Shown here: piece by piece, positions 656 through 8,749 of the stretch
How the letters are laid out: every line of letters begins with the position of its first letter
Position numbering within the stretch: position 1 is the stretch's first letter
Sequence record: PQ014731.1
Reading direction: 5' to 3' (one strand)
Length of the DNA: 64,000 nucleotides
DNA from: Escherichia phage VB-EcoM-WM
Translations under genes and position numbers: made by a program
The notes under the pieces: model-generated
Database searches by the model: none
The model's input: the letters and a program-made list of their open reading frames with translations, nothing else
Told to the model about the DNA's origin: nothing

Positions 656-684
656 ATAACGGGCACCCCCGGTGATTGTCTCCC
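656..684. repeat. 29-bp element ATAACGGGCACCCCCGGTGATTGTCTCCC, left copy of an inverted repeat pair
   Basis: Exact reverse complement found at 8721-8749. Confidence 0.6.
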
Positions 685-802
685 GGCCCCTACTGCCCCG
701 GCTTGTTATTATAGTATCACACAGGACAAAGAAAGCAAGAAGTTTTTGCATAAATTTTTAGACGATAATGATAATCGTTCTCATTTCATGCAGCGCCCAT
801 CT

Positions 803-833
803 CCGGTGGTTGTCTCCCCCGTCACCGGTGCCT
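803..833. repeat. Diverged copy of the CCGGTG(A/G)TTGTCTCCCC element
   Basis: CCGGTGGTTGTCTCCCCCGTCACCGGTGCC resembles the reverse complement of 8701-8740. Confidence 0.4.
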
Positions 834-994
834 GCCGTCCTTTCGATATGTATATTGTGCCACCTGGCGGGGCCGCTGTCAACACTTTTCAAAAAAAAAA
901 TTCTAACCTGATGCGCTAACCGCTGCAACCTGGCGGGGCCAGCCTGGTGGGCCTATGCTATAGGATAGGTAACAATTGAAGAGGAGGTACAAAA

Positions 995-1168
995 ATGAAA
1001 GGTAATAGGATCCCCCTGGAAAATGTAGCTATTAATAACGCTGAGGCTATCGCCCTGGTTGAAAAGGCTATGGCGGGAGCGTTGGAACATAAAGAAGAGT
1101 ACGAAAAAATGATGGTCAACCTGGCAGGGGCGGCTGGAGAATTCTACCCAAAAAATAATTTTAACTAG
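995..1168 (+). CDS. hypothetical small protein (57 aa)
   Basis: ATG 7 nt after GAGGAGG RBS; below the 60-aa cutoff of the ORF track. Confidence 0.45.
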   Translation: MKGNRIPLENVAINNAEAIALVEKAMAGALEHKEEYEKMMVNLAGAAGEFYPKNNFN

Positions 1169-1171
1169 TGG

Positions 1172-1200
1172 TTGACAGCTCGGACAGTTTTTGTTATTCT
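1172..1200 (+). promoter_or_regulatory. sigma70-like promoter (TTGACA-17-TATTCT)
   Basis: Hexamers and spacing read directly. Confidence 0.5.
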
Positions 1201-1253
1201 TATCCTCGCAAGGTGAACAACACCACACTAATTAACAGAGAGGATAAAAAATC

Positions 1254-1451
1254 ATGAACGCCTACGGAATTAAAGTACGTCGCAGCACTCGCCAGGTGGT
1301 CACCGATCAAATGGTCTGCCAGGTGGATGTAACCATAAACAACGGGCAAGGCCTTTATAAATTCCGTCGCGGTCAGAGCTATACCCGGCAACAGCTTAAT
1401 CGTTGCGCCCTGACAAAAGGCCAGATCAACCACTGGTTTAATAAAAAATAA
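1254..1451 (+). CDS. hypothetical small basic protein (65 aa)
   Basis: ORF with GAGAGGAT RBS. Confidence 0.55.
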   Translation: MNAYGIKVRRSTRQVVTDQMVCQVDVTINNGQGLYKFRRGQSYTRQQLNRCALTKGQINHWFNKK

Positions 1452-1454
1452 GTA

Positions 1455-1483
1455 TTGACATATAGGCCGACACCAAATACACT
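1455..1483 (+). promoter_or_regulatory. sigma70-like promoter (TTGACA-17-TACACT)
   Basis: Hexamers and spacing read directly. Confidence 0.5.
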
Positions 1484-1515
1484 AAAAGCACAAAAGACAC
1501 TGAGAGGATAAAATC

Positions 1516-1914
1516 ATGAAAACCACTACCTTTAATTTTGATAATGCGGACTTTTCTTTTTCTGATGTCAAGAACTGCCGCCGTGATCGTGGATTTTACA
1601 AGGCTTATAATCTGGTGGGCCTGGATGATGACAATAATTTGCACGAAGTAGCTGAGATCCGGTATTATGCCGCCGCTAGCGGGAACACTTACTACTGCGT
1701 TTTTTGGATACACGACAACAAGAACAATAAGTACGGCTATACTGGCGGCAAGGCGAGCGGTCACGGTTATGATAAAGCTAACGCAGCACTTGAGAGCGCA
1801 TTAAATGCTATGGGGATCACTGCCGACGGCTGGATCTACGAAGAAGAGTTTTTGTCGGCACTTGCTGACCGCCTGGGCTATAAAAAGCACATTGTAACAT
1901 GCGCCCACGAATAA
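1516..1914 (+). CDS. hypothetical early protein (132 aa)
   Basis: ORF with GAGAGGAT RBS. Confidence 0.6.
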   Translation: MKTTTFNFDNADFSFSDVKNCRRDRGFYKAYNLVGLDDDNNLHEVAEIRYYAAASGNTYYCVFWIHDNKNNKYGYTGGKASGHGYDKANAALESALNAMGITADGWIYEEEFLSALADRLGYKKHIVTCAHE

Positions 1915-1920
1915 AAATTA

Positions 1921-6056: not shown

Positions 6057-6398
6057 TACCACGTTAATTAATCCATTTAGTGAAGATTTGAGGCCAGCAG
6101 CCTGGCGGAATGGATTCAATAACGAAAAATTTACTTTTAGGCCTGATCTTGAGGAATTTTATAACAATGGATCGAACAACGACAGAGATAACTTTTCTCG
6201 TAATGTGCGTGGCGATAATACTCCTGGGGGCCATTGTAAACCACGTCACTGCTAACAGGAGGAAAGGGGGAGACGATGACAACCAAGGATAAGCCCAGCA
6301 CCGACAAGGCGCGCCGCGTTATGGTATGGCTTGAGATTATCGCCCTTGAAATATTGTTAGGCGTAGGGATGTATTTTATCGCCGTACGTACCTGATAA

Positions 6399-6431
6399 CG
6401 GCCCCCGATCCCTGGGGGCCTGACTTTTTTC
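6399..6431 (+). terminator. rho-independent terminator followed by an A15 run
   Basis: GGCCCCCGATCCCTGGGGGCC hairpin plus T-run; A15 at 6432-6446. Confidence 0.6.
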
Positions 6432-6549
6432 AAAAAAAAAAAAAAATTTTTCTTCCGGGGTGTTGCAATCTGGTCCAGAATATGGATAATAACAATCAAC
6501 GGGGAGACACTCCCCACCACACAGACAAAGTTCCAAAAGGAGAAACAAA

Positions 6550-6750
6550 ATGAGCAACAATATCCGCGTTATTAACTTCAAAAAAGAAGAAAAAATAGCT
6601 GTGCTGGTTGATGGTCAAGAAATATTCAAAGGGTATTATGAGGATCATCAGGCGGCGATCAGTATTACCCGCGTAATTGGTTACCATAATTTTTACCCTC
6701 AAGGCGCTGAGGCAGCAGTAAAACGAATTAAGGAGATTGTAGGCCTGTAA
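6550..6750 (+). CDS. hypothetical early protein (66 aa)
   Basis: ORF with AAAAGGAGAAA RBS. Confidence 0.55.
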   Translation: MSNNIRVINFKKEEKIAVLVDGQEIFKGYYEDHQAAISITRVIGYHNFYPQGAEAAVKRIKEIVGL

Positions 6751-6799
6751 AATTTATTTTTAGATGGCCTTGACCCCAGGGCCATCAAATAAAGTAAAT
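6751..6799 (+). promoter_or_regulatory. conserved intergenic element copy 3
   Basis: Same hairpin element as 2400-2445 with one loop substitution. Confidence 0.55.
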
Positions 6800-6842
6800 T
6801 TAAAACCTGTTAAAATAATCAGTGCAAAAAGGAGAAATGATC

Positions 6843-7142
6843 ATGTTTATACCCGCCAATGATCTTTATTTCTTTGATGGTCAGATCGTAGACGGCGTGG
6901 AAGTTGAGATCGCTGGATGCAAAGGCGGCCAGGTAATGATCTTCCGCAATAGTGCCTTTAACGATCATTTTATTACAATGACTGTTGAAGTTAAAAAGCT
7001 GGATGATAAGAAAACACTCATTGACTATTCCGTGAAAGATCATCCAGACTACCACATGATCTGTGGTGATTTGTGCATTGTTGACCGTGACAAGGTGGGC
7101 GGCATTGTGATCGCTATTGTGAACGATGTTTTTTCTGAATAA
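6843..7142 (+). CDS. hypothetical early protein (99 aa)
   Basis: ATG after AAAGGAG RBS. Confidence 0.55.
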   Translation: MFIPANDLYFFDGQIVDGVEVEIAGCKGGQVMIFRNSAFNDHFITMTVEVKKLDDKKTLIDYSVKDHPDYHMICGDLCIVDRDKVGGIVIAIVNDVFSE

Positions 7143-7366
7143 TTCCGGCAAATGATGCAAAATAAGGCCCATGGCAGGGCCTGCAGCGATATAATCATAC
7201 AAAGGCTATGCGGTTGCATGGCCTTTTTTATTTTAGCGCTACAGCGGCCCCCAAGGCGCTTAAAAAATTTTTAAAAAGTACTTGCATCAAGTCCGACAAT
7301 ATGGATAATAGGACGTGTCAGGGGGGCGGCCCCCAATCATTAACCGGACAGATGGGAGTTAAAATC

Positions 7367-7651
7367 ATGGCTATTGTTACTGTTGGCGATGTAGTAGAAA
7401 TGGAAGCAAAATACTTGAAAGCGGGGATGCATATCCTACGCAACGATCTTGAACTAGTCCTGACAATGGTCGACTATAATCCCGGTCAGGATTATCCAAG
7501 CATTGACTACTTTTTTGAATATGTTGATGAAGAATTAAAAGAGGATGAGGCTTATCGGGGTGAATTTTGCAATTTCTTTTGCCCTGACGAGGTTGTAAAA
7601 GTTATCTATCAACCTGGCGTACCTTTCCCGTTGCACGCCATCAATAAATAA
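7367..7651 (+). CDS. hypothetical early protein (94 aa)
   Basis: ATG after GGGAG; promoter-like TTGCAT-17-GATAAT at 7281-7312. Confidence 0.55.
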   Translation: MAIVTVGDVVEMEAKYLKAGMHILRNDLELVLTMVDYNPGQDYPSIDYFFEYVDEELKEDEAYRGEFCNFFCPDEVVKVIYQPGVPFPLHAINK

Positions 7652-7776
7652 GCCTGGCGGGGCCGAAAAAGGCCCCTCCTGAAAATATGAAAAAATAAAG
7701 ATAGGTGGATCATCATGATGGAACAAATTAAACGCGCTGAGGCTATTAATGGCAATGATGCCACCAACATGACAGA

Positions 7777-8040
7777 ATGAAAAACATCATCTACAGATTG
7801 ACAAAACGCAACATTATGATCGCCACCGTGATCGCTTGCCTTTTCGCTTTCGTGAGTAACGCAACGTTTAACGCCGTGGGCGGGGTGGTGTTTAATGCTG
7901 GCAGCGTTTCAACAGCTAACACAATGATCGATTGTTTGCAACTTTTCTCTTATGTTGCCTTTCGTTTAAAAATAGCTTGCAAGGTAGACCGCTTTGATTT
8001 ACCTTTTATTTGTGGCGGCGTGATCGCTATCGTCTGGTAA
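7777..8040 (+). CDS. hypothetical membrane protein (87 aa)
   Basis: ORF with hydrophobic N-terminal half; appears coupled to a 21-codon upstream ORF. Confidence 0.45.
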   Translation: MKNIIYRLTKRNIMIATVIACLFAFVSNATFNAVGGVVFNAGSVSTANTMIDCLQLFSYVAFRLKIACKVDRFDLPFICGGVIAIVW

Positions 8041-8720
8041 AGTGTACGACATAGGGCGGGGCAATAAGGCAACGCCCATTAATAAGGGTGGAATCATGTT
8101 AGAAAAAATTTTCACGGTTGTAGTAGTTGGCCTGGCATTATCGGTTGGAGTGGTTGCAACTATGGCTAACATGATCCTATCTTCCCACGGTATCGGATAA
8201 TGTGAAACAAATGATCACGAACAAAACAGGAAAAACGGAATTTTTACGCAACTTACAGATCGGCAAACCTGAGATCTGGTATTGCACTAAAACACCACGT
8301 GACGAAATGAAAGATTTTACCGCCACGCTGAAGCGGGTAAAATATCCATTACGCAGAAAAAAGCCTTGATAGTGGTGGAAGGTGAGATCCCTCAAACCGT
8401 TGTCATAGTTGAGCGTACAGCATAGTTTAATCTATACCGTACTCCCCATTAACTAACAAAGCATAAGCAGGCGGCGGTGACCGCCTTGAACGCAACAGAA
8501 AGAGAATAGAAAACATGAGAAAGATAATTATTACCATGGGGATCGTGGCGGCAATGTTGGCGATCTTTCCCTTTATGGTTAGGTATGTGCTGATCAGTAT
8601 TGTCCTGATAGTCAGTGATCTATTGGAAACGGTTGGCACCTGGTTTTAAGATAATAAACAGGGCTTGCAATGGTCCTGTTTTTTGTTATACTTATCTCAC
8701 GGGTGGCACCTGGCGACGGG

Positions 8721-8749
8721 GGGAGACAATCACCGGGGGTGCCCGTTAT
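8721..8749. repeat. 29-bp element, right copy of the inverted repeat pair (reverse complement of 656-684)
   Basis: Exact match read directly. Confidence 0.6.

Follow-up and report, generated by a model that had tools for sequence, protein, structure and literature searches.

Paralogous copies of a conserved noncoding box lie downstream of outward-facing predicted promoters in an rV5-like coliphage

The stretch of Escherichia phage VB-EcoM-WM analyzed here (sequence record PQ014731.1; 64,000 nucleotides (nt), hereafter the window) carries the arms of an exact 29-nt inverted repeat on either side of a block of small, presumably early genes, and a third, diverged copy close to the left arm. This repeat is not a recombination device; what it exposes is a noncoding module that has been conserved in a group of virulent phages and has putative Fur boxes beside it. 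The two arms and the third copy are very probably paralogs of one module, in which a host sigma70-type promoter is followed by the box, and we rate the module as either a promoter-proximal cis element or a transcription-dependent origin. For the left locus we favor, with a probability of roughly 35 to 40% and by analogy with known origins, a replication origin that would be primed or activated by transcription.

Judged by its sequence, the source is an rV5-like (Vequintavirus) coliphage, positions 1–10000 of the window being 96% identical to Escherichia phage FV3 over their full length and matching more than 200 other rV5-like genomes. The 29-mer ATAACGGGCACCCCCGGTGATTGTCTCCC stands at 656–684 on the plus strand and its exact reverse complement at 8721–8749; there is no further match at up to three mismatches and none in 100 dinucleotide shuffles, and a repeat search returned the same arm pair (29 nt, 100% complementary, arms 8036 nt apart). 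The exact repeat claimed by an earlier, sequence-only reading of this DNA is therefore real and not expected by chance. The third copy, which that reading had placed near 803–833, has its core CCGGTGGTTGTCTCCC at 803–818, with 798–818 being 86% identical to copy A and 784–820 being 76% complementary to 8719–8755, and the GC-rich context was confirmed as well (GC per 60 nt of 0.60–0.65 at the copies, the 99th percentile of the window being 0.58). Two further claims held in part. The hairpin-forming context is clear for copy C and modest for copy B, but copy A is no different from shuffled sequence. That most early genes lie between the arms agrees with the 25–30 or so small plus-strand open reading frames (ORFs) with sigma70-like promoters found there, but in rV5 the same-strand gene train continues upstream of copy A. 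The genes from about 995 to 9451 are small plus-strand ORFs, hypothetical proteins in relatives, many of them with strong sigma70-like promoters, and PHROG and Pfam searches with the small ORFs flanking the repeats gave matches of unknown function only. The three copies and the promoters predicted to read into them are as follows.

656–707, minus strand: element A, predicted initial transcribed box reading ...GCCGGGGCAGTAGGGGCCGGGAGACAATCACCGGGGGTGCCCGTTAT; 656–684 is the left arm; placed by the exact repeat, the core motif and the strand of the conserved promoter
790–847, minus strand: element B, the diverged third copy, reading ATCGAAAGGACGGCAGGCACCGGTGACGGGGGAGACAACCACCGGAGATGGGCGCTGC; core at 803–818
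8699–8749, plus strand: element C, predicted initial transcribed box ACGGGTGGCACCTGGCGACGGGGGGAGACAATCACCGGGGGTGCCCGTTAT; 8721–8749 is the right arm; the best-folding copy
708–738, minus strand: P_A, predicted sigma70-type promoter into element A; TTGCTT (738–733), 19-nt spacer, TATAAT (713–708); position weight matrix (PWM) score 9.8, 92nd percentile
854–882, minus strand: P_B, strong predicted sigma70-type promoter into element B; TTGACA (882–877), 17-nt spacer with TG (TGgCACAAT), CACAAT (859–854); PWM score 15.0, 99th percentile
8665–8692, plus strand: P_C, predicted sigma70-type promoter with extended -10, into element C; TTGCAA (8665–8670), 16-nt spacer, TGtTATACT (ending at 8692); score 12.7, 98th percentile

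All 31 distinct homologs of the box have a predicted sigma70-like promoter, whose position relative to the box is constant and whose strand is the one on which the core reads GGAGACAA. The distance from the end of the -10 hexamer to the core is 24–36 nt throughout, so the box would occupy about +20 to +50 of the transcript. These promoters have a mean PWM score of 12.1 (88th to 99.5th percentile; background 5.8, from random 73-nt windows) compared with 7.8, at variable positions, on the other flank. Because the conserved promoter sits on that strand, copies A and B read leftward and copy C rightward, and the 29-nt repeat is inverted because the promoter-plus-box units face outward from the early-gene block. 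P_B and P_A are tandem promoters. Both hexamers of P_A are identical in six Vequintavirus sequences, its 19-nt spacer probably making it weaker than P_B and P_C; P_B was also picked up by a consensus scan and is conserved in FV3, rV5, Gotham and the relative L028. The -10 region of the C-type copies is TGTTATNCT in Vequintavirus, Phapecoctavirus, Justusliebigvirus, Seunavirus and Certrevirus, with variation confined to position 4 of the hexamer and the extended TG kept, a pattern that would be expected of a working promoter. The -35 hexamer of P_C lies in the loop of the preceding terminator hairpin; the same hairpin-with-promoter design is seen in a 61-nt intergenic cassette (TTTTTAGATGGCCTTGACTCCAGGGCCATCAATAAAGTAAACT) that occurs four times in the window (2386–2446, 3008–3068, 3339–3399 and 6739–6799), each time as a hairpin whose loop contains a TTGACT -35, with a -10 after it. 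A CAACCTGGCGGGGCC-like sequence occurs three times, in the P_B spacer (858–874), just upstream of the first early gene (924–940) and inside that gene (1117–1134).

Other promoter assignments were considered and rejected. Our first idea, a plus-strand small RNA expressed from a Fur-box promoter at A and B, relied on a weak TTGAAT-18-CAGAAT sequence (score 9.1) that is present in some lineages, not conserved in position and absent at the C-types; it was dropped because the opposite-strand promoter is universal, and the sequence is retained only as a candidate convergent partner under Fur repression. With the core taken as the -35 and TATTCT as the -10, a nested sigma70 promoter scored below background (mean PWM 1.9 vs. 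2.9), the T at position 6 of the -10 often being absent, and for a sigma54 promoter (TGGCAC...) the spacing, as read from the sequences, is wrong by 2 nt.

On its purine-rich strand the core of the family is GGAGACAAWCACCGG-N4-TGCCYGYYAT; all three copies belong to it, and it ranges over the Vequintavirinae and Stephanstirmvirinae. BLAST queries with 400 nt around copies A and B and with 220 nt around copy C both returned short islands of 76–94% identity in genera that otherwise have little nucleotide similarity, namely Seunavirus (GAP31, SEW_6S, EC152), Certrevirus (phiTE, CR3, CR8), and Phapecoctavirus and Justusliebigvirus (phAPEC8, ZCKP1, KKP_3264, cardinal), as well as in phages of Proteus, Erwinia, Klebsiella and Serratia. 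The search of related genomes suggested by the sequence-only reading has in this way revealed strong conservation. In the complete rV5 genome (137,947 bp) the box is present only three times, as the homologs of A, B and C; the repeat is not mentioned in the rV5 genome paper. The inverted layout of A and C, 8–10 kb apart, recurs in rV5, Gotham, SEW_6S and phiWec188. Rfam 15 gave no match at the elements (window 1–12000, E-values up to 5) or in six distant loci (E-values up to 1), and a scan of IMG/VR with a degenerate 15-mer gave mostly unrelated matches. An origin from host sequence, or a host RNA target, was rejected, 5,426 E. coli genomes being without similarity apart from a 26-nt Fur-box fragment. 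The family is an undescribed, deeply conserved noncoding module.

Other genera possess, in addition, a longer and highly conserved noncoding “B-like” element with its own promoter, reading ACGCCACCCCACGGCGAAAAGGCGGGGCUAAC...GGUCGGAAGGUGRAUCGCCGG.

L002 1660–1790 and L003 1620–1760, minus strand: “B-like” element; homologs in L005, L009, L010, L013, L014, L019, L023, L025 and L030

By eye it may form a small pseudoknot, in which CCC/GGG has changed to CCA/UGG in one clade; RNAalifold recovered only invariant pairs and Rfam gave no match to it.

Copies A and B lie within an ORF at 632–919 that has been annotated as a hypothetical protein (rV5 ORF198, FV3_00182, Gotham F10B_0202, phrog_14993). 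As a protein gene this ORF is very likely spurious, to judge from its pattern of change: substitutions among six Vequintavirus sequences fall 12:13:13 by codon position, the relative L028 has two in-frame stops, and the frame is lost in GAP31 and phiTE. Its ATG lies within a Fur box, with no Shine-Dalgarno sequence before it. A conserved RNA fold was not apparent either. RNAalifold predicted 0 pairs over 26 family members, and the mean fold z-score was -1.08 on the read strand vs. -0.75 on the complement, with many members near 0. For the copies in the window the scores are -1.5 for C (59-nt element; -3.5 with the upstream terminator hairpin), about -2.5 for B and about 0 for A. Closing stems such as AUAGCGGG/CCCGCUAU are seen in several A-types and are absent from other lineages; some of their G-U pairs favor the read strand (L013, L014), and natural GGGT to GCCT variants break pairs without compensation. 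Since no fold is shared and pairs break uncompensated, the conserved feature is the primary sequence. A conserved hairpin of the form CACC-CCC-GGTG was rejected, being destroyed in relatives (CAGGCC, CAGCTC and similar), as were the boxB (GACAA loop) and boxA of lambda and P22, whose flanking pairing is, by eye, not conserved across the family.

The suggestion of shared regulatory RNA structures at operon ends can be kept in so far as the elements are shared and regulatory in position, but they stand at the transcript starts of conserved promoters, and a conserved RNA fold is unsupported. That they are terminators or RNA-processing hairpins at operon ends is very improbable, processing sites being another option that the sequence-only reading had named. 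The elements are GC-rich, copy C is a hairpin, and the homologous hairpin was labeled “terminator” by the phiTE annotators; yet a terminator scan of both strands predicted none at any of the three copies, none of which is followed by a U-tract (the tails are TATATAAAAAAA, TTCTGCAAAC and CATGAAATGA), copy C sits just past a canonical terminator at 8656–8681, copy A folds no better than chance, and a conserved promoter reads into each copy.

The sequence-only reading had also offered recombination or inversion sites, and the perfect 29-bp inverted repeat is a point in favor of site-specific or homologous inversion of the 8-kb early segment. We nevertheless regard this explanation as extremely improbable. 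The 55 relatives that align over at least 80% of window 1–10000 all do so on one strand, minority isomers being invisible in assemblies, and FV3, rV5 and Gotham are strictly collinear with the window. The longest exact match between A and C is 29 nt here, 14 in FV3 (28/29 identical), 19 in rV5 and 17 in Gotham; on these alignments the perfect 29/29 identity is specific to this phage and not a conserved property of the family. The arms thus diverge in relatives, and a third copy exists. In the annotations of rV5, FV3 and Gotham, the genes that lie between the arms or close to them all encode small hypothetical proteins, with no recombinase (invertase or integrase) annotated in or around the segment, not every ORF having been run against Pfam. 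Transposon-like terminal inverted repeats were rejected on the ancient arrangement, the third copy and the lack of a target-site duplication at the arms, as read directly from the sequence. The copies do sometimes exchange sequence, which speaks in favor of inversion: A and C agree at 29/30 positions in SEW_6S and at 30/30 in one Certrevirus-like contig, each with genus-specific variants, and differ at four positions in CR3. Such patchy identity is consistent with occasional gene conversion between copies and not with a maintained crossover site, and the perfect match in the window is a recent homogenization in this phage lineage.

What lies ahead of P_A and P_B is of particular relevance for the function of the left locus.

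764–782: putative Fur box GATAATGATAATCGTTCTC beside element B; agrees with the consensus at 17/19 positions, more than any other match in the 64-kb window
601–646: Fur-box-like palindromes beside element A; 628–646 is TTGAATGATAATCATTCTC, 15/19 to GATAATGATAATCATTATC (joint-second best in the window), and 601–621 is a degenerate one
328–630: region downstream of P_A/P_B on the minus strand, with three tandem 65–74-bp repeats (328–513), TAAAATGGATTT copies, the palindrome TTAGCATGCTAA (577–588) and AT-rich DNA (481–630)

On the minus strand ahead of the two promoters, the ORF list and the terminator scan show no credible ORF and no terminator, and P_B is the strongest minus-strand promoter in 1–11000. 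The AT-richest DNA of the region is 481–630 (GC 0.23–0.28, at or below about the 1st to 2nd percentile), and a noncoding stretch of about 1 kb carries an iteron-like array, made up of the 65–74-bp tandem repeats (GGTACTCGATCTGTTTTTCGTTTTC...) and several TAAAATGGATTT motifs; positions 62–77, 143–158 and 497–512 are part of it. Repeats related to these (CTCGATC / CAGAAAATC) are found at the corresponding position in GAP31, SEW_6S and L172, the last being a distant contig of 94 kb that keeps the order of promoter, core and iteron-like repeats and has no Fur boxes. The Fur-box motif is enriched (9 matches vs. 1.46 expected), and three 14/19 matches lie at 10844–10880. All A-types, that of Shewanella phage 1/4 included, have a Fur-type palindrome next to the element, and one also follows the C-type in Seunavirus and Certrevirus; palindromes of the AATGAGAATCATTCTCATT type are conserved in arrays of 2–6 in distant relatives, including the Shewanella phage. 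The palindromes at 601–646 lie about 55–100 nt past the P_A start and overlap a possible rightward promoter (ATGAAA-17-TAGAAT, 598–626, plus strand, score 11.5). Together with a second rightward candidate over a Fur box (TTGCAT-18-GATAAT, 747–776, plus strand, score 7.9), this would face P_A and P_B head-on at about 50–70 bp; neither is conserved across the family. The same Fur-like palindrome is found, flanked by DnaA boxes (TGTGGATAA / TTATCCACA), in unrelated viral contigs (L037 at 1840–2290; also L007, L008, L020, L022, L026 and L038), and the intergenic region concerned in L037 is next to a Toprim/AAA_25 primase-helicase gene, an origin-like context.

The surroundings of copy C are of a different make-up.

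8656–8681, plus strand: intrinsic terminator hairpin with T-run, ending the preceding plus-strand gene (8515–8649) and separate from element C
8771–8799, plus strand: second predicted promoter past element C (P2), TTGACA-17-TAACAT, driving the gene at 8854–9126
10550–11008: homolog of the annotated 459-bp terminal repeat of Gotham; presumptive physical genome end

The stem of the terminator shows a compensatory change (C-G to U-A) in phAPEC8, and the tandem layout of P_C and P2 is also found in phAPEC8-like phages. Copy C is followed by this second promoter, two small genes, a terminator at 9464–9482 and a 2.5-kb noncoding region, and the presumptive genome end, toward which it is directed, is about 2.3 kb from it; copies A and B, about 10.2–10.3 kb (7.5%) from that end, point into the rest of the genome. 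In the noncoding region (9500–12000) the plus- and minus-strand gene blocks converge, with a GC-skew switch near 12 kb, and it contains a perfect 18-bp inverted repeat (10141–10158 / 10275–10292), duplicated 32–36-nt units and ATGCAAACGAATGKCATGGC twice. Fur-like boxes at 10844–10881 and 10966–10995 lie within the terminal-repeat homolog.

These observations provide some plausibility to a transcription-dependent origin at the left locus. Because no gene stands downstream of A and B to be served, the product may be the transcript itself or the process of transcription. We propose the following scenario: host RNA polymerase would fire early in infection from the three promoters, the transcripts themselves and not a downstream protein being what matters. 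At the left locus P_B and P_A would send GC-rich, purine-rich RNA into the Fur boxes, the AT-rich 150 bp and the iteron-like array, while copy C would launch a transcript in the opposite direction, toward the nearby genome end. The conserved box could mark the site of an RNA-DNA hybrid or recruit a replication factor, and Fur bound just downstream could couple firing to iron supply. Promoters reading into an AT-rich region, with or without iterons, are present for A and B and weakly so for C (GC 0.39 downstream). The primary origin of T7 consists of the tandem promoters phi1.1A and phi1.1B with an AT-rich region, and T4 oriF and oriG and ColE1 RNA II are transcription-primed origins. rV5 encodes a T7-like DNA polymerase and a primase/helicase, and every T7 origin requires a promoter (PMC8373140). 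GC-skew was rejected as an origin locator, the skew merely following gene orientation. The RNA-to-DNA switch sequence of ColE1, GGCAAACAAACCACCGCTGG, presumably resembles GGAGACAAACACCGG, a likeness that was given no weight.

Several points weigh against an origin, and the proposal should be interpreted with caution. The role is drawn from anatomy and analogy, and the promoters are predictions, that of P_A having a suboptimal spacer of 19 nt. Past copy C there are an ordinary promoter and two genes, and neither a marked AT-rich stretch nor iterons. A strong G-skew of the element (0.17–0.28) is confined to Vequintavirus, the values in other genera being about 0–0.1, so that a simple argument from a G-rich R-loop does not generalize. 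T7 and T4 origins have no such strictly conserved 15-nt core, which a sequence-specific protein or RNA partner would explain equally well. Leftward transcripts from A and B would, moreover, run antisense into upstream plus-strand genes.

Such a partner is central to two other explanations, each of which we consider unlikely though deserving of attention. The box could be a cis-acting leader RNA, that is, a nascent 5' RNA that modifies RNA polymerase, stabilizes the 5' end or binds a host or phage RNA-binding protein; in the polymerase variant, it would allow read-through of terminators and Fur roadblocks in the manner of HK022 put. The predicted promoters place the box just downstream of an early sigma70 promoter in 31/31 homologs, a topology like that of putL and putR, which are paralogous elements just downstream of early promoters (PMC9378689). 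The slightly better folding of the read strand, the G-U pairs in the stems of L013 and L014, the stable hairpin formed by the Vequintavirus C-type, and the longer “B-like” relative in other genera, with one candidate compensatory pseudoknot change seen by eye, point the same way. Set against this, a conserved fold with covariation was not found (no RNAalifold consensus structure over 26 sequences, mean z about -1.1), many members, copy A and every phAPEC8-type and Seunavirus C-type among them, have z close to zero, the pairs broken in GGGT to GCCT variants are uncompensated, Rfam has no match, and A and B have no gene for a leader to serve. Antisense pairing in trans is also possible, because the inverted copies make plus-strand RNA of A or B complementary to the C leader over 29 nt. 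If the partner were instead a sequence-specific DNA-binding protein, the 15-bp core and second box would be its operator, at which a phage early or middle regulator or a host factor shuts off or roadblocks the three outward promoters. Conservation of primary sequence without structure, the variable N4 between two invariant blocks and the three copies per genome (rV5) speak for an operator, and a co-evolving pair of protein and site would give the high similarity of A and C within genomes, which often exceeds that between genera (29/29 in the window, 29/30 in SEW_6S, 30/30 in the Certrevirus-like contig). This match is inconstant, however, with CR3 and Gotham differing at 4–5 positions, so that sporadic gene conversion fits better than co-evolution; the site is not palindromic and lies at +20 to +50, not over the promoter, and no candidate regulator was identified.

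Control of genome entry appears improbable, more so than either a leader RNA or an operator. The early block would occupy the first ~8% of the linear genome, like the first-step-transfer region of T5, with the repeat- and palindrome-rich A/B region as an injection stop or gate, and P_B and P_A, as the only strong promoters toward the remaining genome, would pull the rest in, much as E. coli RNA polymerase pulls in the T7 genome. The distance of A and B from the presumptive end, based on homology to the Gotham terminal repeat, and the strength of P_B agree with this. The T5 injection stop signal, which is described as containing DnaA boxes along with palindromes, repeats and inverted repeats, and the daunorubicin sensitivity common to Vequintavirinae and T5-like phages (PMC13250531) point the same way, although the latter link is correlative only. 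Entry control presupposes stepwise entry from this end; against it, every downstream gene would be transcribed in antisense, and copy C is left unexplained. In a combined scheme, rather unlikely as it stands, boxes, outward promoters and Fur arrays would form a control module through which a strictly lytic phage senses iron. Host Fur, bound just past the promoters, would gate the transcripts that either fire the origin or bring in the other 92% of the genome, and the early block would be a first-step region of the T5 kind, exit from which depends on the iron status of the host.

Phages of the rV5-like and phAPEC8-like groups have broad host ranges and are in wide use as candidates for therapy and biocontrol, and their early regulation and replication origins are, to our knowledge, unmapped; literature searches returned nothing relevant on Fur boxes, transcriptomes or origins in this phage group. 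The present analysis replaces a mis-annotated hypothetical protein by a conserved regulatory locus, identifies three conserved host-type promoters with a common 30-nt box, and places near-consensus Fur boxes beside A and B. The box and the promoters are specific targets for mutagenesis. If Fur does act there, a virulent phage would be reading the iron status of its host at a replication or entry checkpoint, of which we found no description in the searched literature.

The module can be compared with several known systems. Like Hin/hix, Gin/gix and Cin/cix, it has short inverted repeats (~26–30 bp) flanking a segment of a phage genome, but here there is no annotated invertase gene, relatives show no inverted isomers, the arms are not kept as a pair, and a segment of 8 kb with about 25–30 genes and a third copy is a misfit. 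The putative Fur boxes resemble those of enterobacteria, with 17/19 and 15/19 matches to GATAATGATAATCATTATC by copies B and A and an arrayed arrangement as at iron-regulated genes, but they lie downstream of conserved promoters, not over them, and in a strictly lytic phage. With the T5 injection stop the left locus shares a repeat- and palindrome-rich noncoding region about 8% from the genome end that borders the first-expressed genes; two-step DNA transfer is, in contrast, not known for rV5-like phages, the terminal repeat is only ~459 bp, and there are no DnaA boxes here. The closest analog in layout is HK022 putL/putR, with inverted copies past outward early sigma70 promoters that flank a central region, transcribed, noncoding and about 50–70 nt long. 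The put RNAs, however, have a defined two-stem fold, whereas here there is no conserved fold or covariation, and A and B have no downstream genes to antiterminate into. The origins of T7, T4 and ColE1 have no counterpart to the strictly conserved 15-nt box or to the Fur boxes, copy C is without a clear unwinding region, and the promoters here are of host sigma70 type where those of T7 and T4 depend on the phage polymerase or MotA; what these origins do share with the left locus is tandem promoters reading into an AT-rich, repeat-bearing noncoding stretch with no gene ahead, and in the case of T7 the likeness extends to the T7-type DNA polymerase and primase/helicase that the rV5-like phages carry.

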